Positions 6,581 through 51,980 of a stretch of 64,000 nt of DNA are shown in pieces. The position numbers and the translations under genes were made by a program. Numbering within the stretch: the first letter of the stretch is position 1; each line of letters opens with the position of its first letter. A model generated the notes under the pieces. That model saw only the letters and a list, made by a program, of their open reading frames with translations, had not been told where the DNA came from and did not search any database. This stretch comes from Schmidtea polychroa (Eukaryota): contig CM097885.1 in the NCBI GenBank assembly GCA_044892525.1, forward strand, positions 17,052,001 through 17,116,000, in the 5' to 3' direction.

Positions 6581-7194
6581 AAAATATTATTAAATCATGT
6601 ATCACATTGTAACAACTGACAAACTGATAAACCCGACAAATGTAGTAATCAACAAATCACTTATAAAATTTTTATTATTAATCAAACTGATTACTCACCA
6701 AATTCCAAAAGAAATAAATTCAAATTTAATAATTTTGATTTAATTAAACAAAAAAACCTTATTAAAAATTCATAAAAATAAATTATACAAATTGGTTCTA
6801 GCTTTTGAGATTATTTTATTTTTTAAAGAAAACAATTTTTATAATGGGTTTTTGCGAAGAATTAATCACCAGATCTGATGTAAATTATGTTTGAGTTATG
6901 CAGATTAGTACAAATAAAACATACAAAAATATATTAGTATAAAATGAGCTACCCTACGTACCCCTCTTCAAGGTCATTTAAAATCAAATAATTTTGTTTT
7001 AATCAGCATTCGCGTCTTATATTTTAATTTTTTAAAGAACTTTCAATGTATGTATATTTGAAATTAATTTCTCGTTTTAATGGAGTAATATTTTTAATTT
7101 CGCGAGTAATATAAATAATTTTAATATACCTTTTTAAAAGTCATCCCCCCCCCAAATTCAAACTGGTTTTTATCTCATTTTAAGTATAACCATA

Positions 7195-7620
7195 TAGGCA
7201 GAATTTAATTCTCTATAAAATAGCTTGATTATAAATGTTAAATGTTGTGTTGTGTGTGCTACATACATGTTTTCTTGTATAATTTGGCCTTTCTACCTAT
7301 TAACATTGTTGTTATTGAGTTTTAACTTTAATAAAATATAGATGAATTTTAATTCTCCGTAATATGGTTTTATTTGAAATTTAAAATGTTTTTTAGTATA
7401 TGCTTTACACATGTTTTGTTTTAAATTTTTAATCTTTTATCTAGTTGAAATAAATTTATTGAGTTTTCAATGTAACAATGTATAAATGAAGTCTAATTCT
7501 CTATAAATTGGTTCGATAAAGATTTGAAATTAAGCGTTGTGCATATTTCTCATAGTTAAAATGATTTTATTGAGATTTTACTGTAACAATTTATTGATGA
7601 AATTTAATTCTCTACAATAT
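7195..7620. repeat. Degenerate ~145-bp tandem repeat (about 3 units)
   Basis: AATTCTC-containing motif (AATTTAATTCTCTATAAAAT-like) recurs at ~7202, ~7345, ~7490 and ~7600, with ACATGTTTT recurring in the first two units. Confidence 0.55.
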
Positions 7621-14248: not shown

Positions 14249-14599
14249 ACAATAAAATGATAATTTAAGCCAGTTGGTAGTTAGAAGCGTACGGCAACAA
14301 TTGGGGGGGGTAAAAAATGTTGCAAACTTTTGATTGCATAATTTTTTCCGTAACCATTTTTGATTACATAATTGTTGCCGTACGCTCCAATGTTTTTTTT
14401 CTAGGATTTTAAATACAAAAAATATTTTTTCAATAAACAAGCCAAGGATAAATATTATTTGGGTGGGTCTCCTTGGTCCTGAGAATTTCAATACAAAAAG
14501 GCGGTCTTCAATAAAAAAGCATGGAATTTTCACACTATAGTGAGGGGGTCTCGATGGTCCTGAGAATTTCAATAGAAAAGGTGGTTTACATTAAAAACG

Positions 14600-15050
14600 C
14601 ATAGTAAATTTTTAAAATAAAGCAAATTATGGGTCTAAAATTTAAAAATAAAGTAAATTATGGGTCTAAAAAATTAAATTTAAGTAAATCAAGGTTCAGA
14701 TTTTTTTTTTGAATTAAAGTAAATTATGGGCCTAAAAATTGAATTACAGTAAATTATGGGCTAAGATTTTTGAATTAAAGTAATGAATGGGCTCAACTAA
14801 GTAAATTAAGGTTCAAATTTTTAAATTAAAGTAAATAATGGTTCGAAATTCAAAATTAAAGTTAATTAAGGGCTCAACTAAGTAAATTAAGGTTCAAATT
14901 TTTAAATTAAAGTAAATAATGGTTCTAAAAAATTAAAATAAAGTAAATTAAGGTCCTAAATAATTAATTAAAGTAATGAATGGGCACAAATAACTAAATT
15001 AAGGTTCTAAAAAATTAAATTAATTAAGTTAATTAAGGTCCAAATTTTAA
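14600..15050. repeat. Subterminal ~30-bp tandem repeats of the left arm (mirrored at ~26400-26850)
   Basis: Recurring AAGTAAATTA(T/A)GG.. units. Confidence 0.8.
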
Positions 15051-15389
15051 AATTAAGTAATCAATGGTAAAAAATTAAAGTTAAATAAGTAAATTAAAGT
15101 AAGATTTTTAAATTTATTAACAAAATAATAGTAGGTGTTTGAGAATTGAAATTTTTTAATGAAAATTTTTATGAAATAATAATAATAATAATAATAAAAA
15201 TAATAATAATATATCAACCAAATACTATACAACACATAAAAAATTAACTAAACACATAAAAATAACTAGACACATAACAAAACATATAAACATTAACTAA
15301 ACACATAAAAATGAACTAGACATATAACAAACATAAAAATTTACCAAACAAATAACAAATGTAAAGATATAAACTTTTATTTAATAAAA

Positions 15390-18300
15390 TTAGTCCTCAT
15401 CAGACAAAATAACGTCATCGATATCGATATCATCTTCTCCAAAATCTTCTCCAACATCTTCATTAAATTCTTCCTCATCTTCTCCAACATTTTCATTAAA
15501 TTCTTCCTCATCTTCTCCAACATTTTCATCATTTTCTTCTCCAACAATTTCTCCAATATTTAATTCACTTAATCTTACATGCCCATATGCAAGACTAGTA
15601 TTTTTCCCCACCCAAACCCTTTTGTCATCTTTGTTAGTTAGTGCTATTTTTGTATATTATTTTAGTCTGAGGAACCGAAAAAATCTGGTTAGTGTTATAA
15701 CAATCCAGGTATGACTGATGTTTTATGTCACTACCTTTCAATGTTACACCTTTAGCCTTTTTTGTTTCCCCATCACCCAACAAGCTATAACATTTAGGTC
15801 TAAGAAAAACCCATTCCTTATATTTTAGACCCTTATTCTCGTCTTTGAACTTTCCAATGACAGAATCAAGGTTCTTACTATATAAGGAATGACAACTATT
15901 GTAATTGGAAGTATCTAATAAATTATCTCGAATCATTGCAGGTAAAAGAACCTCAAGTTTACAGTTAATGACTTCGAGGAAAAAAGAATCTGTATCACCT
16001 GCAACGATATTAATTTTACAATTAAACTCATTGCGAAATGATTCTAAATCCTTATATATTGTAATTCATACATTCTGAGTTTAGATAGATCAAGTACAGA
16101 TTGACCAATGTAACTTGGTCTATCTAAACATATAGAATCTGAATTCAATAATGCTGCAATTAAATTATCGTCTATTTTAATAGATTTTTTAAAAGTCGGC
16201 TTTGAAGAATATTTAACTAAATTACCGGCAGTTGTACAAAGACGAAGATTCATTCTTTTTAAATTTTCAACTGTTTTGCCGTATAAACTGTTATTTAACA
16301 ATTTATAATAATTTTTATCTAAATTATTTATGCTTTTTGACCTTAATTCTGTATTAGTATCTATATATTTTTTAAAAATTGGAGATTGCTTAAATCTTAC
16401 ACCCCTATTTACACGTGTTACTTTAACACCAAGTTCCAAATATAATTTTAATAATCTCCAATGAATCACATAATTAGATTTTGGAAGATGAGTTAATAAT
16501 AATTTTTCAACCTTAGACCCAGCAGGTTTCATTTTTTCAGCAGCTACAGGGAAATCATCCAACTTATCATGAAGCTCAGAAGGAATTACAAGATCAACTT
16601 CAAGAGTGTATCCATAAGACAAGGATTCAAGATTTAAATTCCTACATTCATCCATTATTAAATCAAATCCATCAAGAACCCAACTAAATTCACCACAAGG
16701 TAATGATTGACTTAAAGCCCAACCATAAAGATTATTAATATCTATATAAAGTAACTCGGTGTTCTCATCGGTTTTTACGTAATGCTTATTCACAAAAGTA
16801 AGACCGCCTCTTATTCCACCCTCATAAAAGCTAAACATTTCGTTTTCAGTTATGAGCTCAATTGGTTCATCTAAAGACATTAATGCAGAAGACCAAGACA
16901 TACCAGGTATTCCGAAATAATTCAATGGTTCCAATCTATTGTGAGCAATAGATTTCAACCGAAACTGATGAAAGAAATCAGCCAAAAGAAAACAATCGAG
17001 TTTTAAGTAGATCATCATATAATCTAATAAAGTTACGCAATTAGATTCTACCCAAATCTCCTGAGCTTTTTCATACTCAAGCTCAGTGACACCTTCCCAG
17101 ATTGGTGGTAATTCATAAGTAGTTTGGAGAATATCTAAAGATGTAGCGAAATTATAAGGGAAGATTCCTTTTTCAGAAACTATAGTGCCAGAAAAAACAG
17201 AATTAGTAAAAGGCAAAGAATTCAAAGTTTTGACTGCTTTAGCTAAAGAATCATTAACAATTTGATAAGAATCAATAAACCTTAAACTAATTTTTCCTAA
17301 ATGCGCAATCAAAGAAATAAATTTTTCAGTCGTTATTGGGATGCAACCTAAAGTCCAATTTTTAAATTTATTTAAACCATATTTAAGTATATGGTGCATA
17401 TCGTATCCCTTCAAGTTGTGAAATACGATAGGCAAAATTTTATTTATTTTCCTATTTATGTTACATGTGCTACAAGCTGCACCCAAGTATTTCCCCGTAA
17501 AATGATCGTGATCTCTAACAGGATCGACGATAGATTTCATACAAAGATAACAAACAGATGCACTAACAAATTGACGTTGTTCAATTTTTGTTAATTTCAT
17601 CATAGGTTTCCTACCCATTTTATAATAAAAAGGAAGAACCTTATTTAATGCTATATCCTCTATAGCACTTAAAAAAACTCTCGACGCAATCTAAATCTAT
17701 GAACTGTTGATAAGATTTAGATCCGTCAAAGTTATTTACAAGTAAAAGACCAGCAGATATTGGCATGTGTCGTTGGAAATGAACATTATCAGAAGGTAAA
17801 ATAGCCTCAAAATCGGCATAAACTACAAAAGGAGGAGTTACTGTTTTCGACCAGTCAGTAAACTGCAATAATTTATTTTGAGGGAAGGTGTAAAGAGTTG
17901 TTCCTAATTGATTACGTTTACATAATATTTCATGTTTGTCCAGTGCGTTTCTATTTTTAAAACCATTCAAACAACGATGGCACCATAATGATTGTATGCG
18001 TGTAGGACAACTAGTGTTGATACCACAATTCAGTAACCTATTTAAATTACTTATAGCAACGTAATGGAAATTGTTTCCTTTATTTAATAGTAGTAAATTA
18101 ATTATAGTTCCATTTAAAACTTTGGAACGATGTATAATATCTAAATGTGGATGTTTTAATACATAATTATCAGTTAATTGTTTGCTATTATCATATGAAA
18201 AAACATTAATTATTAAACCCGGATTTTTAGATTCAAATTTCCTAATGTCTTTTAATTTCATAGGTAATTCTAACGGGTTGTATACTAAGTCAGATAAATT

Positions 18301-19897
18301 ATAACTTGATGTCCTATTCCTATATTGTGTAATAACTTCATCATATTTTAAAATAGCTAAAATACTATATAAAATCCATGAATCATCAGTGTTTTTTATA
18401 TTAATTAAACAATATTTATTTTTTAGATAAGTAGGTGTTTCAATGAAACTCCTACCACTTAATCTACTTAACCTACTTATTTTTGTTATGGTGAAATGTA
18501 TTTCAGTAATATTTTTAATATTCCAACTGCTTCCTAACTCGGTAATATTAGTAATTTTCTCATTTAATTCCTTAATGCCTTCATCAAAAAATGATGCAGT
18601 TAAAGGCTTTGCATAATTTGAGATATTATTAACTTTTATTTCCCCGTCTTTTTCAAATTCGATTGTTATTCCGAATTGAATTTTGACGGAGCCTAATTCG
18701 TTAATAATATCTCGTAATTTTATTATTAGTTGTTCAGGAAATATTATTTCTTTTATATTTAAGTCGCTAGTATTTAAGCTTAATATTTGATGGGTACCTC
18801 TTAAATCTCTTTGTACTGTTGGTACATTTCCACCTATTTGTATTATATTTAATCCATCCCAAGAATCAAAGGAAGTGAATAATCCATCATTGGATTCAAC
18901 AACCAATCCGACCTGGGATTCAACAAAAGGCAATCCGACCTGGGATTCAACAACCAATCCATCATTGGATTCAACAAAAGGCAATCCGACCTGGGATTCA
19001 ACAAAAGACAATCCGTCCTGGGATTCAACAACCAATCCATCATAGGATTCAACAAAAGGCAATCCGACCTGGGATTCAACAAAAGACAATCCGTCCAGGG
19101 ATTCAACAACCAATCCATCAATGGATTCAACCTCTAATCCAACCTGGGATTCAAAAGAAGAAGTATCTAATTTAATTTTTTTATTTGTATTATTTTTTTC
19201 TATAGTCGAGGGTCTTTTAAAAACGCTATCTTTTTTAAAATTAAACCTATCTAAATGATTTTTATGTTTATTATAAAAAACGCTATATGTTACAGGGTCA
19301 CTAGTCTTACATACAGGACATATAAAATAAGTTTTATTATAATATTTTTTCGTGTAATAATTCTCCATTATAGAATGGCAATTATTATCATGTTCTTTCG
19401 ATGAACAGTAATTTGGATAAAGTATACCTATAAAATAAAAATTTAATAAAAAAAAATATAATTTAAATGAAATATTTTAATAAATGTTTACGCAAAAATT
19501 TGCAAATTATTATTATTTTACAAATTTTATTTACTAAAAAATAAAAATTTACTAAATTAAAAATATTAACATTTACTTAAATAAAAAATTATATTAAATT
19601 TCCTTTAAATTATAAAAAGTAATCAATACTTACATTGTAAATTTTCATTTCGATTATTTGACACATTGACATAATTTTTCTCTTTATTTGTATTACCTAA
19701 ATTATTAATTAATTAAATCAATAAATTAAAAATTATGTTTACTTTTTCTTTTCAAATTTCCTTTAATCTTCGATTTTAAATTGTCTTCATTAATATTATC
19801 TAAATTAATTAATAAATTAATTAATAAATAAATTAAAATTACCAAATTCCTGAATTTTTTCTCGGACATTCATAACGTTTTCTATTAAAGAATTCAT
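15390..19897 (-). pseudogene. polB: Protein-primed family B DNA polymerase (pPolB), left-arm copy, frameshifted
   Basis: Mirror of the right-arm copy. ORFs 17641-19368, 16044-17618, 15634-15936 and 15390-15611, plus predicted 5' exons up to 19897. Confidence 0.9.
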
Positions 19898-20380
19898 TTT
19901 TATAGGTTAATTATTTGTTAAATGTGACTAATGATTGATTATTGTTTATAGATTATTATTTTTTATAGATTATTATTGTTTATAGGAACAAATTCTTACC
20001 AATGAAAATCAAGGAAGGGTAGGAAAAATAAATGTATTACGTTGCAGTATTTTAAAACTTCAATATATTTTAAAACACATTTTGACGCTAAAGTTGACTT
20101 ATTTAACATTTTCATAATAATTTAATAAAAAATAATGTGATGAACCCACAAAGTAATATCATTTTTCATCAAATTGCAAAACAGTAATAACGTTTTCATA
20201 AAATTGTAACAAAGTAATAACATATTTCAGATAAATTTTCAACAGTTGTAAAATATTTAAGCAAATTGTAACAAGATTAGAAAATATTACAACAAAGTAG
20301 TAACATATTTCAGAAAATTTCAACAAAGTTGTAAAATATTTATCAAATTGTAACTAAAATAATAAAAATATTGCAACAAA

Positions 20381-21070
20381 AATTAAAAAAAAAATTTAAT
20401 TCTCTACAAAATGGCTCAATTACAATTTTAGTTTGTCGCTTTGTGTGTATACACACATGTTTTTACGATAAATTTGTATTTTTCGCGCGGTTAACGTAAT
20501 TTTCTTGGATTTTTATTCATATATTATATAGATAAAATTTCATTTCCTATAAAATAGCTTGATTAAAAATTATGTCTCGTATGATGTGTGTAATACACAC
20601 ATGTTTTTACGATAAATTTGTATTTTTCATACAGGTAACGTAATTTTCTTAGGATTTTATTCATATAATATATAGATAAAATTTAATTTTCTATAAAATG
20701 GATTGATTAGAAATTATGTATCTTGTTTTGTGTGTAATACACACATGTTTTATGATAAATTTGTATTTATTATACGTTAACGTAATTTCCTTGGATATTT
20801 ATTCATATATTATATAGATAAAATTTAATTTTCAATAAAATGGATTGATCTAGAGTTTAAAATGTTGTATTATTTTATTACTTTGTTGCAATATTTTTAT
20901 AATCTTATAACAATTTATTTTACATCTGGTGAAATATTTCCGAAATATGTTATTACTTTGTTGTAATTTACTGAAAGACTTCACAATTTATTACAATATT
21001 CTTTTTAATTTGTTGTCCGTCTTCGAAATAATGTATTGATTTGTCCCAATTAACATCATTATTTTATTAC
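20381..21070. repeat. Non-palindromic central spacer with 3 copies of a ~144-bp repeat plus degenerate TATTACTTTGTTG repeats
   Basis: ACACACATGTTTT at ~20451, ~20595 and ~20739. Symmetry breaks at 20380/21071. Confidence 0.85.
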
Positions 21071-21553
21071 TTTGTTGCAATATTTTTATTATTTTAGTTA
21101 CAATTTGATAAATATTTTACAACTTTGTTGAAATTTTCTGAAATATGTTACTACTTTGTTGTAATATTTTCTAATCTTGTTACAATTTGCTTAAATATTT
21201 TACAACTGTTGAAAATTTATCTGAAATATGTTATTACTTTGTTACAATTTTATGAAAACGTTATTACTGTTTTGCAATTTGATGAAAAATGATATTACTT
21301 TGTGGGTTCATCACATTATTTTTTATTAAATTATTATGAAAATGTTAAATAAGTCAACTTTAGCGTCAAAATGTGTTTTAAAATATATTGAAGTTTTAAA
21401 ATACTGCAACGTAATGCATTTATTTTTCCTACCCTTCCTTGATTTTCATTGGTAAGAATTTGTTCCTATAAACAATAATAATCTATAAAAAATAATAATC
21501 TATAAACAATAATCAATCACTAGTCACATTTAACAAATAATTAACCTATAAAA

Positions 21554-24500
21554 ATGAATTCTTTAATAGAAAACGTTATGAATGTCCGAGAAAAAATTCA
21601 GGAATTTGGTAATTTTAATTAATTTATTAATTAATTTATTAATTAATTTAGATAATATTAATGAAGACAATTTAAAATCGAAGATTAAAGGAAATTTGAA
21701 AAGAAAAAGTAAACATAATTTTTAATTTATTGATTTAATTAATTAATAATTTAGGTAATACGAATAAAGAGAAAAATTATGTCAATGTGTCAAATAATCG
21801 AAATGAAAATTTACAATGTAAGTATTGATTACTTTTTATAATTTAAAGGAAATTTAATATAATTTTTTATTTAAGTAAATGTTAATATTTTTAATTTAGT
21901 AAATTTTTATTTTTTAGTAAATAAAATTTGTAAAATAATAATAATTTGCAAATTTTTGCGTAAACATTTATTAAAATATTTCATTTAAATTATATTTTTT
22001 TTTATTAAATTTTTATTTTATAGGTATACTTTATCCAAATTACTGTTCATCGAAAGAACATGATAATAATTGCCATTCTATAATGGAGAATTATTACACG
22101 AAAAAATATTATAATAAAACTTATTTTATATGTCCTGTATGTAAGACTAGTGACCCTGTAACATATAGCGTTTTTTATAATAAACATAAAAATCATTTAG
22201 ATAGGTTTAATTTTAAAAAAGATAGTGTTTTTAAAAGACCCTCGACTATAGAAAAAAATAATACAAATAAAAAAATTAAATTAGATACTTCTTCTTTTGA
22301 ATCCCAGGTTGGATTAGAGGTTGAATCCATTGATGGATTGGTTGTTGAATCCCTGGACGGATTGTCTTTTGTTGAATCCCAGGTCGGATTGCCTTTTGTT
22401 GAATCCTATGATGGATTGGTTGTTGAATCCCAGGACGGATTGTCTTTTGTTGAATCCCAGGTCGGATTGCCTTTTGTTGAATCCAATGATGGATTGGTTG
22501 TTGAATCCCAGGTCGGATTGCCTTTTGTTGAATCCCAGGTCGGATTGGTTGTTGAATCCAATGATGGATTATTCACTTCCTTTGATTCTTGGGATGGATT
22601 AAATATAATACAAATAGGTGGAAATGTACCAACAGTACAAAGAGATTTAAGAGGTACCCATCAAATATTAAGCTTAAATACTAGCGACTTAAATATAAAA
22701 GAAATAATATTTCCTGAACAACTAATAATAAAATTACGAGATATTATTAACGAATTAGGCTCCGTCAAAATTCAATTCGGAATAACAATCGAATTTGAAA
22801 AAGACGGGGAAATAAAAGTTAATAATATCTCAAATTATGCAAAGCCTTTAACTGCATCATTTTTTGATGAAGGCATTAAGGAATTAAATGAGAAAATTAC
22901 TAATATTACCGAGTTAGGAAGCAGTTGGAATATTAAAAATATTACTGAAATACATTTCACCATAACAAAAATAAGTAGGTTAAGTAGATTAAGTGGTAGG
23001 AGTTTCATTGAAACACCTACTTATCTAAAAAATAAATATTGTTTAATTAATATAAAAAACACTGATGATTCATGGATTTTATATAGTATTTTAGCTATTT
23101 TAAAATATGATGAAGTTATTACACAATATAGGAATAGGACATCAAGTTATAATTTATCTGACTTAGTATACAACCCGTTAGAATTACCTATGAAATTAAA
23201 AGACATTAGGAAATTTGAATCTAAAAATCCGGGTTTAATAATTAATGTTTTTTCATATGATAATAGCAAACAATTAACTGATAATTATGTATTAAAACAT
23301 CCACATTTAGATATTATACATCGTTCCAAAGTTTTAAATGGAACTATAATTAATTTACTACTATTAAATAAAGGAAACAATTTCCATTACGTTGCTATAA
23401 GTAATTTAAATAGGTTACTGAATTGTGGTATCAACACTAGTTGTCCTACACGCATACAATCATTATGGTGCCATCGTTGTTTGAATGGTTTTAAAAATAG
23501 AAACGCACTGGACAAACATGAAATATTATGTAAACGTAATCAATTAGGAACAACTCTTTACACCTTCCCTCAAAATAAATTATTGCAGTTTACTGACTGG
23601 TCGAAAACAGTAACTCCTCCTTTTGTAGTTTATGCCGATTTTGAGGCTATTTTACCTTCTGATAATGTTCATTTCCAACGACACATGCCAATATCTGCTG
23701 GTCTTTTACTTGTAAATAACTTTGACGGATCTAAATCTTATCAACAGTTCATAGATTTAGATTGCGTCGAGAGTTTTTTTAAGTGCTATAGAGGATATAG
23801 CATTAAATAAGGTTCTTCCTTTTTATTATAAAATGGGTAGGAAACCTATGATGAAATTAACAAAAATTGAACAACGTCAATTTGTTAGTGCATCTGTTTG
23901 TTATCTTTGTATGAAATCTATCGTCGATCCTGTTAGAGATCACGATCATTTTACGGGGAAATACTTGGGTGCAGCTTGTAGCACATGTAACATAAATAGG
24001 AAAATAAATAAAATTTTGCCTATCGTATTTCACAACTTGAAGGGATACGATATGCACCATATACTTAAATATGGTTTAAATAAATTTAAAAATTGGACTT
24101 TAGGTTGCATCCCAATAACGACTGAAAAATTTATTTCTTTGATTGCGCATTTAGGAAAAATTAGTTTAAGGTTTATTGATTCTTATCAAATTGTTAATGA
24201 TTCTTTAGCTAAAGCAGTCAAAACTTTGAATTCTTTGCCTTTTACTAATTCTGTTTTTTCTGGCACTATAGTTTCTGAAAAAGGAATCTTCCCTTATAAT
24301 TTCGCTACATCTTTAGATATTCTCCAAACTACTTATGAATTACCACCAATCTGGGAAGGTGTCACTGAGCTTGAGTATGAAAAAGCTCAGGAGATTTGGG
24401 TAGAATCTAATTGCGTAACTTTATTAGATTATATGATGATCTACTTAAAACTCGATTGTTTTCTTTTGGCTGATTTCTTTCATCAGTTTCGGTTGAAATC

Positions 24501-26061
24501 TATTGCTCACAATAGATTGGAACCATTGAATTATTTCGGAATACCTGGTATGTCTTGGTCTTCTGCATTAATGTCTTTAGATGAACCAATTGAGCTCATA
24601 ACTGAAAACGAAATGTTTAGCTTTTATGAGGGTGGAATAAGAGGCGGTCTTACTTTTGTGAATAAGCATTACGTAAAAACCGATGAGAACACCGAGTTAC
24701 TTTATATAGATATTAATAATCTTTATGGTTGGGCTTTAAGTCAATCATTACCTTGTGGTGAATTTAGTTGGGTTCTTGATGGATTTGATTTAATAATGGA
24801 TGAATGTAGGAATTTAAATCTTGAATCCTTGTCTTATGGATACACTCTTGAAGTTGATCTTGTAATTCCTTCTGAGCTTCATGATAAGTTGGATGATTTC
24901 CCTGTAGCTGCTGAAAAAATGAAACCTGCTGGGTCTAAGGTTGAAAAATTATTATTAACTCATCTTCCAAAATCTAATTATGTGATTCATTGGAGATTAT
25001 TAAAATTATATTTGGAACTTGGTGTTAAAGTAACACGTGTAAATAGGGGTGTAAGATTTAAGCAATCTCCAATTTTTAAAAAATATATAGATACTAATAC
25101 AGAATTAAGGTCAAAAAGCATAAATAATTTAGATAAAAATTATTATAAATTGTTAAATAACAGTTTATACGGCAAAACAGTTGAAAATTTAAAAAGAATG
25201 AATCTTCGTCTTTGTACAACTGCCGGTAATTTAGTTAAATATTCTTCAAAGCCGACTTTTAAAAAATCTATTAAAATAGACGATAATTTAATTGCAGCAT
25301 TATTGAATTCAGATTCTATATGTTTAGATAGACCAAGTTACATTGGTCAATCTGTACTTGATCTATCTAAACTCAGAATGTATGAATTACAATATATAAG
25401 GATTTAGAATCATTTCGCAATGAGTTTAATTGTAAAATTAATATCGTTGCAGGTGATACAGATTCTTTTTTCCTCGAAGTCATTAACTGTAAACTTGAGG
25501 TTCTTTTACCTGCAATGATTCGAGATAATTTATTAGATACTTCCAATTACAATAGTTGTCATTCCTTATATAGTAAGAACCTTGATTCTGTCATTGGAAA
25601 GTTCAAAGACGAGAATAAGGGTCTAAAATATAAGGAATGGGTTTTTCTTAGACCTAAATGTTATAGCTTGTTGGGTGATGGGGAAACAAAAAAGGCTAAA
25701 GGTGTAACATTGAAAGGTAGTGACATAAAACATCAGTCATACCTGGATTGTTATAACACTAACCAGATTTTTTCGGTTCCTCAGACTAAAATAATATACA
25801 AAAATAGCACTAACTAACAAAGATGACAAAAGGGTTTGGGTGGGGAAAAATACTAGTCTTGCATATGGGCATGTAAGATTAAGTGAATTAAATATTGGAG
25901 AAATTGTTGGAGAAGAAAATGATGAAAATGTTGGAGAAGATGAGGAAGAATTTAATGAAAATGTTGGAGAAGATGAGGAAGAATTTAATGAAGATGTTGG
26001 AGAAGATTTTGGAGAAGATGATATCGATATCGATGACGTTATTTTGTCTGATGAGGACTAA
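21554..26061 (+). pseudogene. polB: Protein-primed family B DNA polymerase (pPolB), right-arm copy, frameshifted
   Basis: N-terminal region: INIKNTDD and HY (vOTU-like), zinc finger CHRC...HEILC. Exonuclease region: ExoI YADFE, endonuclease-VII-like CYLC...DHDHFTGKYLGAACSTCN, ExoII FHNLKGYD. Polymerase region: motif A DINNLYGWA, motif B KLLNNSLYGK, motif C GDTDS at 25452-25466 (outside the ORF track), RPKCY, KAKGV and DDKR...AYGH. Confidence 0.92.
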
Positions 26062-27189
26062 TTTTATTAAATAAAAGTTTATATCTTTACATTTGTTATT
26101 TGTTTGGTAAATTTTTATGTTTGTTATATGTCTAGTTCATTTTTATGTGTTTAGTTAATGTTTATATGTTTTGTTATGTGTCTAGTTATTTTTATGTGTT
26201 TAGTTAATTTTTTATGTGTTGTATAGTATTTGGTTGATATATTATTATTATTTTTATTATTATTATTATTATTATTTCATAAAAATTTTCATTAAAAAAT
26301 TTCAATTCTCAAACACCTACTATTATTTTGTTAATAAATTTAAAAATCTTACTTTAATTTACTTATTTAACTTTAATTTTTTACCATTGATTACTTAATT
26401 TTAAAATTTGGACCTTAATTAACTTAATTAATTTAATTTTTTAGAACCTTAATTTAGTTATTTGTGCCCATTCATTACTTTAATTAATTATTTAGGACCT
26501 TAATTTACTTTATTTTAATTTTTTAGAACCATTATTTACTTTAATTTAAAAATTTGAACCTTAATTTACTTAGTTGAGCCCTTAATTAACTTTAATTTTG
26601 AATTTCGAACCATTATTTACTTTAATTTAAAAATTTGAACCTTAATTTACTTAGTTGAGCCCATTCATTATTTTAATTCAAAAATCTTAGCCCATAATTT
26701 ACTGTAATTCAATTTTTAGGCCCATAATTTACTTTAATTCAAAAAAAAAATCTGAACCTTGATTTACTTAAATTTAATTTTTTAGACCCATAATTTACTT
26801 TATTTTTAAATTTTAGACCCATAATTTGCTTTATTTTAAAAATTTACTATGCGTTTTTAATGTAAACCACCTTTTCTATTGAAATTCTCAGGACCATCGA
26901 GACCCCCTCACTATAGTGTGAAAATTCCATGCTTTTTTATTGAAGACCGCCTTTTTGTATTGAAATTCTCAGGACCAAGGAGACCCACCCAAATAATATT
27001 TATCCTTGGCTTGTTTATTGAAAAAAATTTTTTTATATTTAAAATCCCAGAAAAAAACATTGGCAACAATTATGTAATCAAAAATGTCTACGGAAAAAAT
27101 TATGCAATTGTTGCCGTACGCTACTAACTACCTACTTAAGCCTTTTGCTGCAAATAATGTATATAATGAAAAAATTTTCGACTATAAGA

Positions 27190-28734: not shown

Positions 28735-29095
28735 GATGTGACAATCCTATAACTATTTTTTCTCAGGACGACTTATATCCAATCGTCTATATCCAATTCA
28801 GTCAGGACATTTATATATTATATCCAATTGAATATTCAATGGAAGATGGTTATTCTGGTACTTATTTCGAAATATTTACGATATTTCATGTGCAGTGACT
28901 GGAATTCTGTTTTGTCAGATCAGATGAGATTAAATGCCCAACGTTATTTGTTAACTTCGCAAGAGCCAATTCCAGTTGATCAATTGGCTACACAGATCTG
29001 TGATTTAATCCATACTTATACTATGAACGATGATCTTGAGGCTATTTATAGCCGTATGATGAAATGCGATGTGGATATTCGAGAGGATTTATATA
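28735..29095 (+). pseudogene. Degenerate proteasome alpha subunit (PSMA4/alpha3-like) fragments joined to a short actin-like fragment
   Basis: DNPITIFSQD...YPIEYSMED and RLNAQRYLLTSQEPIPVDQLATQICD resemble proteasome alpha-3. MKCDVDIREDLY resembles actin MKCDVDIRKDLY. Confidence 0.7.
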
Positions 29096-30345
29096 CGATG
29101 ACAATGAGGAATCAACACATATCATATCCCTTGATAAATGCATCAGAATTTCATAATAATTATTGTAAAAATAATAATAATTAATATCATAATAAGAGGC
29201 ACGAGTTTTCCGTGCTATTTTTATTTGAAATCCTCACTAAGAATTCCCTGAATTAAGTTTATTTATAATTGAAAAAATGAGGGAAAAAAATAATAATAAG
29301 AAATTCCGGTAAAATAATTTGATTTATTCCTAATAAAAGTGCATAGTGAAAAAATAATTTCAAGAAGCCAAAAAAATTTGTTTGTGAAGGATTTATTTCG
29401 ATATTATTTCGAAATTAAATTTCGAAGTTATCAGAGTTGATTAAAAGATTAACGTCAGAGGATAAATCAAGTTATATGTCAAGGCTGAAGGAATTTGAAT
29501 ATATAATGACCATTTGACATGACTATTATAGATCAAATCAAGGACGTCATTTTTTAAGAACTAATGATGATGATGAAGACATAAAGTTGATCTAGGGCTC
29601 GACCATCTCTTATAGAGAAATTGCGCATTCGTTAGTTTTCTTTAACAGATGATGGAGCTTCGATATATTTTGAATTGCTGGAATCATTCGTGATGTATTG
29701 GAGGTAGAAGATGATGTATACTCTGACTGAAGCAACTTTCATCTACCGGGTAGACAATACCAGCAACATCCAATTTTACACGAAAGGATTGAAAGTGCTT
29801 TAAACGCATTCTTCGCAAATTCATACATAATGCACAATGTGATTTGAAAGTTTTGTTAAAGAATAGTGTTCTTCAATGAACTTAGATATATTACGTTATA
29901 CACAAATAAAGGCGCGAACAATAAATTCGCAGATAAATCTATATTGAATCGTGAATAAAGTATTTATAACTAAATTCTGAAAAAGGCATATAGTGATTTA
30001 ATAAAGATATATGGACTAAGTGGAGATATTTCCTTTTTTATCTGCGCTTTTATTGTCCGTGCCGTTTAATTATTATTATATTTAATATGTCATTTAAATC
30101 AAATCTAGTTGATTCCAATAAAGACTCAGTTCTAATAAATAGGTGTTTGTCCTTTATTTTAATATCGACGTACCAAGACATAAGAATATTAGATGAATAG
30201 CAGAATAATTGTTTTTTATTTTATTCTTGAAAAAATCTAAAATTTCTTCGCTTGTTGACTGTTAAGGTTTAAATAATTAAATAATTGTGGGTACTACGAA
30301 TTCATGCTTTTCTTGATTGAAAGTTGCCAAACGCATTGACTAAAT

Positions 30346-51223: not shown

Positions 51224-51980
51224 GTTTGTATTTGTTGCGCATGTGTGCAGTTTTTAATTTTTCTTCCACTTTTCAGATTTCTATAGTAGAAGATGTATCT
51301 CACTGAACTATAAATGAGAATATCAACGTGAAATCAAAGTAAGTATGTATGTTTCTATAATGTAAGATTATTGATTTTTTATTATATTATAGGAAACGGT
51401 TCTCAGTGGTGTTTGGTGTAGATACTGCTGTCAAGTGGCGACTATTGTGTTGGTTAACCTCTCTACGTGATGTGACTAAGTTACAGATGATTTTGATGTT
51501 TATCGTCTCTTGATTGATTTATGGCGTGACAATTTTACTTTAGTTACGGCAATTCTGGCAAATATCTCATCGTTTAGATTCCTATTGTAGCCCTGATGAG
51601 TGAGTTATGGCATAGATTTAGATTACTCATGATGGCTAGTTTCACCAAATGCCTGGTTGAATTTTATTGCACTTGCTTAATGAACTACTCGTATTGGAGA
51701 TTTTTGGAAACTAATTAAAATTAATACGACTGGTTCCCGTCTGATCTAATGTGATTGGGTTTATGCTGTCACACCCACGGTCGAGGAATATCTGAGGAAT
51801 CTGTCTTATTATAATGTTTCTCGAATGTGCAAGTGTCCGTAGTTCGTCTAATTATTACAGCCCGTCAAATTTTAAATGTTGATCGAAAATTGCATTCAAG
51901 ATGTAGAAAGACGGAATGATGGACGCCTCAGTCACTACAACCTATCTCCTGTAAAATGATTCTTTTGAATATAGTTCTAG

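Follow-up and report, generated by a model that had tools for sequence, protein, structure and literature searches.

The 5ʹ end of the polymerase gene in a palindromic element of Schmidtea polychroa is best explained as the spliced front of an Alpha-type Polinton/adintovirus pPolB, and we consider it likely that this gene is transcribed by RNA polymerase II, starts at position 21554 and carries three phase-1 introns that are spliced out. Positions refer to the window, which is the whole stretch of 64,000 nucleotides analysed. Splicing of intron 3 is very likely, and splicing of introns 1 and 2, which is read from sequence signals, is likely as well. In the proposed course of events, the host RNA polymerase II would transcribe the gene from a TATA-like cluster, the host spliceosome would take out the three phase-1 GT-AG introns, and translation would start at 21554, with the Met at 22083 falling inside the protein. 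The product would open with a Lys/Asn-rich stretch of about 58 residues and continue through a zinc-binding module, a repeat linker, a terminal protein (TP), a vOTU, an exonuclease and a palm. The predicted features of the 5ʹ end are as follows.

21466..21552, plus strand: possible Pol II promoter, with four CTATAAA boxes and an initiator-like heptamer at 21524
21554..21608, plus strand: predicted exon 1 with the start ATG, 55 nt
21609..21651, plus strand: predicted intron 1, 43 nt, phase 1, GTAATT/TTAG, with no G/C inside the terminal dinucleotides
21652..21708, plus strand: predicted exon 2, 57 nt, Lys/Asn-rich
21709..21754, plus strand: predicted intron 2, 46 nt, phase 1, GTAAAC/TTAG ends
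21755..21817, plus strand: predicted exon 3, 63 nt, whose last base would be base 1 of the module's first Cys codon
21818..22023, plus strand: predicted intron 3, 206 nt, phase 1, GTAAGT donor, T-rich acceptor, ATAG end
22024..22238, plus strand: predicted start of exon 4, a conserved Cys/His module across the internal Met at 22083, with no Pfam family

An earlier note on this DNA had proposed this structure, and its exon and intron coordinates, with GT-AG introns of 43, 46 and 206 nt all in phase 1, hold exactly. When the joined exons were recomputed, they gave the claimed open frame running into ATG 22083, a stop-free stretch of 234 nt or 78 codons with D, S and C as the residues at the junctions of introns 1, 2 and 3, respectively. 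Retention of any one intron in the frame of ATG 21554 leads to a stop within 3–5 codons. GT-AG ends, a donor consensus and an AT- or T-rich acceptor, as in U2-type introns, are found in the predicted introns. The G/C content was 39 of 175 positions in exons 1–3 versus 2 of 81 inside introns 1 and 2 (Fisher p = 1.4e-5), a contrast calculated on boundaries that were picked post hoc, after inspection of the data. A two-intron chain leading from an ATG to donor 3 with GTAA/TTAG signals was obtained in none of 1000 dinucleotide shuffles, and with any GT/AG in 4 of 300; as donor 3 was held fixed and the size window of 38–65 nt was chosen post hoc, these nulls somewhat overstate the significance. Outside the element, the density of GTAA..TTAG pairs of mini-intron size is about 0.7 per kb of strand, with 71 of the window's 90 located there. 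Exons 1–3 are low in complexity. The host-type spliceosomal introns claimed in the note are thus the best reading of the signals and the open frame, and for intron 3 of the homologues as well. A 54-nt GTAAGT..TAG stretch outside the element (51339–51392) is a candidate for a mini-intron of comparable length on the host side.

The suggested CTATAAA promoter fared less evenly: boxes at 21466, 21483, 21500 and 21546 do form a local cluster, but the motif is common in the window. CTATAAA as an enriched motif was rejected (31 observed, 25.4 expected window-wide), and the promoter reading is only that of a local cluster of candidate boxes.

The test of intron 3 comes from protein homologues. The first 73 codons of exon 4, in which the Met is residue 20, were used as the query against 1.84 billion proteins and gave 32 matches (including the repetitive and probably spurious P0045), 23 of which align from query residue 7 or earlier, ahead of the Met. 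The shared module follows the pattern C-x4-6-C-x4-H-x2-5-C...C-P-x-C...H-x2-H. The 37 proteins examined contained 28 front halves of the module (3 being too near the protein end to judge), and a Cys stands 4–6 residues ahead of the invariant Cys in 25/25 modules with room for it, counts that are not all independent because they include within-protein repeats and the near-duplicate pair P0019/P0046. In the window, the 19 codons ahead of ATG 22083 form the front half of this module, and its first Cys arises only across intron 3, with a spacing of 6, while without splicing the genomic frame reads Gly at that point and offers no in-frame ATG in the 16 open codons that precede exon 4. The first Cys therefore fixes the acceptor at 22023 and calls for a phase-1 exon ending in T. 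It leaves the donor unfixed, because 6 of the 13 GT sites tested would yield Cys at the junction; the donor at 21818 is the sole GTAAGT among the 13.

As the conserved module begins ahead of the Met at 22083 and continues past it, ATG 22083 probably encodes an internal Met. The leader of 78 residues claimed earlier stands as 78 open codons, but the last 20 of them belong to the Cys/His module, and the leader proper would be a Lys/Asn-rich segment of about 58 residues. From its residue pattern, the module probably binds zinc, with two ions. With the window's copy of the module, no match to a Pfam family came up to that family's cutoff, and the module had no match at 0.9 or above in the ESM Atlas. 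A fold search with a model of the P0017 module (pLDDT 81) gave no clear match, the best rows being weak (Kaiso, E = 1.3; Serrate, Z = 2.9), a result that is evidence neither for a new fold nor for zinc binding. P0015, P0018, P0024, P0027, P0031 and P0036 each carry the module two or three times in tandem.

Among the relatives, the called start of P0001 is the equivalent of the internal Met 22083, as it is in P0039, P0043 and P0050. P0051, a full-length cluster mate of P0001 that is 48% identical to the window copy over the TP/vOTU region, has the whole module and, ahead of it, G-K..FFFSS-G. To judge from the protein, this G-K, Phe-rich run and S-G may be the trace of a read-through phase-1 intron, which would lie two codons upstream of the Cys, compared with within the Cys codon in the window. 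In 9 of 30 modules, G/S-K/N/T and a hydrophobic run follow, 8 of them at the same offset, against a background of 22 of 573 windows; the short matches with such a run after the module are only putative polymerases. Several relatives thus appear to bear protein-level signs of phase-1 intron read-through. Eight of the 32 matches continue into a TP-like domain, including the branch P0027/P0047, which is 31% identical to P0051. The leader is not universal, because 10 of 25 modules begin with M-x-C at the called start, without a leader. The linkers of P0002, P0019 and P0023 are also repeat-like.

Word-index searches for full-length carriers of the module returned only P0001 or no match. Scans of viral contigs gave no confirmed relative, and DNA of close relatives was not found in the viral contig, metagenome and genome scans. 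The metagenome scan gave 80 loci (the best 80 of 428) and the genome scan 52, nearly all 23–38% identical, and the module was absent from all 132 of these distant loci (best domain E 0.39). At 71 of 91 distant loci, an N-terminal part of at least 150 codons lies in one ORF. At three distant loci (L053, L073 and L002), the pPolB match exceeds the expected span by 1–3 kb near the endonuclease insertion site, which we read as larger inserts or duplications. Polinton-type pPolB genes also occur in contigs of prokaryotic MAGs (L081–L131), which are probably binned eukaryotic or viral DNA.

These relatives bear on when the introns arose. It is unlikely, in our estimate, that the introns are spliced but were gained late, after integration, through introner-like insertion or local duplication. 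Introns 1 and 2 do share 37 of their 42 aligned bases (a score attained by 4 of 500 shuffles, and both introns are low-complexity), and the apparent intron of P0051 sits outside the Cys codon. Further, according to one report, introners colonise integrated Maverick/Polinton-like proviruses in dinoflagellates and were mostly gained post-integration (PMC11957031). Within the window, however, resemblance to another intron was found only between introns 1 and 2, and a self-comparison of the window gave no further copies of these introns among the listed matches of at least 60 nt. All three introns are in phase 1 and confined to the 5ʹ end, and the read-through traces of the relatives are likewise of the phase-1 type. 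The introns are most likely an inherited trait of the Polinton lineage.

We also weighed an improbable variant in which the acceptor at 22023 is real and the set of upstream exons differs. Translation could start at ATG 21582, which can read through intron 1 into exon 2; an exon could run from ATG 21779 to a GT at 21789; or a 12-nt micro-exon could lie at 21918–21929, as permitted by an additional 43-nt GTAA..TTAG pair observed inside intron 3 (21875–21917) among AGTAAAT repeats. All three models keep an open frame and can obtain the Cys, and the second would give a start near the M-x-C of the relatives. Nevertheless, GTCAAA at 21789 makes a poor donor compared with GTAAGT at 21818, and there is no or almost no G/C in either the intron-1 read-through or the micro-exon. 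ATG 21554 precedes the other starts, is the first ATG and has an A-rich context, and the two upstream mini-introns would have to be a coincidence that none of the 1000 shuffles produced. Intron 1 is the least secure of the three because of the read-through from ATG 21582.

That the gene is unspliced, a single ORF from ATG 22083 behind AT-rich promoter DNA and a decayed half-module, is very improbable: Met 22083 is conserved, several relatives have their called start there, and Polinton core genes are intronless in two published reports (PMC8097293; 10.1101/2022.07.12.499685), but the Met starts of the relatives come from ORF calling, with the full module upstream in P0051, the half-module in the window retains its C, H and C residues and shares 12 identical residues with P0018, and the AT-rich tract stops at an AG that falls right within the conserved Cys codon.

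The predicted spliced gene is part of a larger element, with the following features.

14266..14271, no strand: left 6-bp target-site duplication, a hexamer identical on both element flanks
14272..27136, no strand: palindromic Polinton derivative, 12,865 bp, AGT...ACT ends
14394..20380 and 21071..27057, no strand: element arms, with a 690-nt spacer between them
19366..19897, minus strand: mirror of the predicted spliced 5ʹ region, with exons 19843–19897, 19743–19799 and 19634–19696, then from 19427
22290..22570, plus strand: in-frame tandem repeat of 24/27-nt units in the polymerase linker
22620..23777, plus strand: TP-like domain, vOTU-like region and exonuclease start, 48% identical to P0051
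23761..26061, plus strand: rest of pPolB in three further frames (PF03175, E = 1.1e-31)
27137..27142, no strand: right 6-bp target-site duplication, a hexamer identical on both element flanks

The AGT...ACT ends and the 6-bp target duplication indicate that the 12,865-bp unit most likely integrated as one element. The mirrored structure described in the note at 19366–19897 is present on the minus strand, and the silent difference it reported between the arms in exon 3 was recovered as ACG/ACA at 21762. In total, 10 of the 5987 arm positions are different between the two arms. We rejected the two arms as independent witnesses of the gene structure, as they stem from a single duplication with 10 differences, and two silent arm differences as a sign of selection (n = 2). 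An assembly artefact was rejected as the source of the palindrome; the distinct ends and the target duplication argue against it. The palindrome likely originated by fold-back during strand-displacement replication. The arm differences cluster near the arm ends, and there are none in 14781–19224. The element ends (14272–14395 versus 27058–27136) differ by indels, and a short inverted repeat within the left end is in part missing from the right end. The element is placed between two (AAT)n tracts, and its two polymerase copies point outward. A 144-bp tandem repeat occupies 20391–20878 in the central spacer, and a diverged copy (65–70%) lies outside the element at 7192–7529. The element is surrounded by AT-rich sequence in which hAT-type and LTR elements have decayed, and an apparently decayed stretch at 28753–29184 resembles a proteasome subunit (PF00227, E = 2e-5).

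Within 14272–27136, the ATG ORFs of at least 80 aa are all derived from pPolB, apart from one overlapping frame in the repeat, and no integrase, capsid, ATPase or protease ORF was found there. The element is therefore a non-autonomous derivative, and any integrase came from elsewhere; it is probably a passenger moved by such an integrase. In both arms, the reading frame of the polymerase shifts near 23.78, 25.39 and 25.80 kb, so that the gene is broken into four successive frames and is not a single ORF; one change adjoins a homopolymer run, where a sequencing error is possible. Introns are an unlikely source of these changes, because the relatives span those regions without a gap; chance GTA..YAG pairs lie near two of them. 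An endonuclease-VII-like insert in the rest of pPolB stayed below the cutoff in the Pfam run, which covered 18 of the 46 ORFs of the window. A little-finger-like fold is expected of the TP domain in Alpha-type pPolB; in the model of the TP region, residues of about 1–117 are confident, and the best PDB matches were Y-family polymerases (E = 0.012–0.05, none at 0.001). The vOTU-like region aligns with the relatives and keeps the His motif, while the Cys that is invariant in P0001–P0004 is not Cys here, an assignment of catalytic residues that combines our own reading with the published layout. No OTU structure was among the listed fold matches of this region.

The layout of Alpha-type pPolB is TP-vOTU-EXO-PALM (Starrett 2021, PMC8502044; Krupovic 2024, PMC11071308). 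Of the features expected of a Polinton, the element has a protein-primed family B polymerase (the PF03175 match above, with a broken frame in this copy) and bounded ends at 14272/27136 with identical hexamers, whereas the intronless state of core genes is probably lacking, to judge from the splice signals and the module Cys. Compared with the adintovirus/Polinton pPolB, the gene would differ in its predicted introns, as Polinton core genes of vertebrates and nematodes are reported without introns, and it has an extra N-terminal Cys/His module that is not in Pfam; the element is unlike adintoviruses and Polintons in being almost wholly palindromic and in its reduced gene content. Vertebrate Mavericks are reported to have intronless ORFs (PMC8097293), and nematode Mavericks intronless core genes and introns only in cargo (10.1101/2022.07.12.499685). 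That cargo is host-derived, whereas the predicted introns here sit in the core polymerase. The dinoflagellate introners offer a likeness, being spliceosomal introns within Polinton-like elements, but they are mobile intron families, whereas here three phase-1 introns would be restricted to the 5ʹ end of the polymerase.

Adenoviruses, which are thought to descend from Polintons, make Pol and pTP from spliced mRNAs in which three short 5ʹ exons, shared by both, are joined to a long terminal exon (PMC11304566, PMC9499273). E2B resembles the predicted gene in being a protein-primed polymerase of the same evolutionary group, with a spliced mRNA that has three 5ʹ exons. Adenovirus introns, by contrast, extend across other genes and serve in the selection of pTP or Pol, while the predicted host-type introns of 43–206 nt lie inside one fused gene. 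In human adenovirus, the start codon is supplied by an upstream exon. To our knowledge, adenoviruses do not integrate with a target duplication. Among the papers listed and the passages covered, the literature search gave none that describes spliceosomal introns in the pPolB of an animal Polinton, and the available portions of PMC10748475, PMC6431247, PMC12220804, PMC8363768, 10.64898/2026.07.28.741253 and 10.64898/2026.07.28.741278 hold nothing on a spliced pPolB. Among 12 listed titles of 101, there was no report of a fold-back polymerase-only Polinton.

Taken as a whole, the feature is real and probably spliced, in a copy that is broken. In descriptions and annotations, the core genes of Polintons are single ORFs free of introns, and a spliced pPolB would depart from that, although adenovirus splicing and dinoflagellate introners are precedents, so it would not be a new mechanism. 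As a more speculative extension, which we regard as unlikely, a branch of animal Polintons may have assembled a new N-terminal part for its polymerase out of small symmetric phase-1 exons and between one and three copies of an undescribed zinc-binding module, with host splicing toggling the module and so the replication of the element. The frame would survive skipping of exons 2 and 3, which makes such toggling possible, and a Ser would replace the first Cys if exon 3 were left out. If true, this splicing-controlled replication would cover polymerase-only fold-back forms that integrate via a borrowed integrase. If the lineage splices its polymerase, ORF callers would trim the N-terminus and halve the conserved module, as seemingly happened in P0001 compared with P0051, and screens that equate intact with intronless would miss or misjudge such copies. 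Expression of the replicase would then be tied to the nuclear spliceosome, as in adenoviruses.
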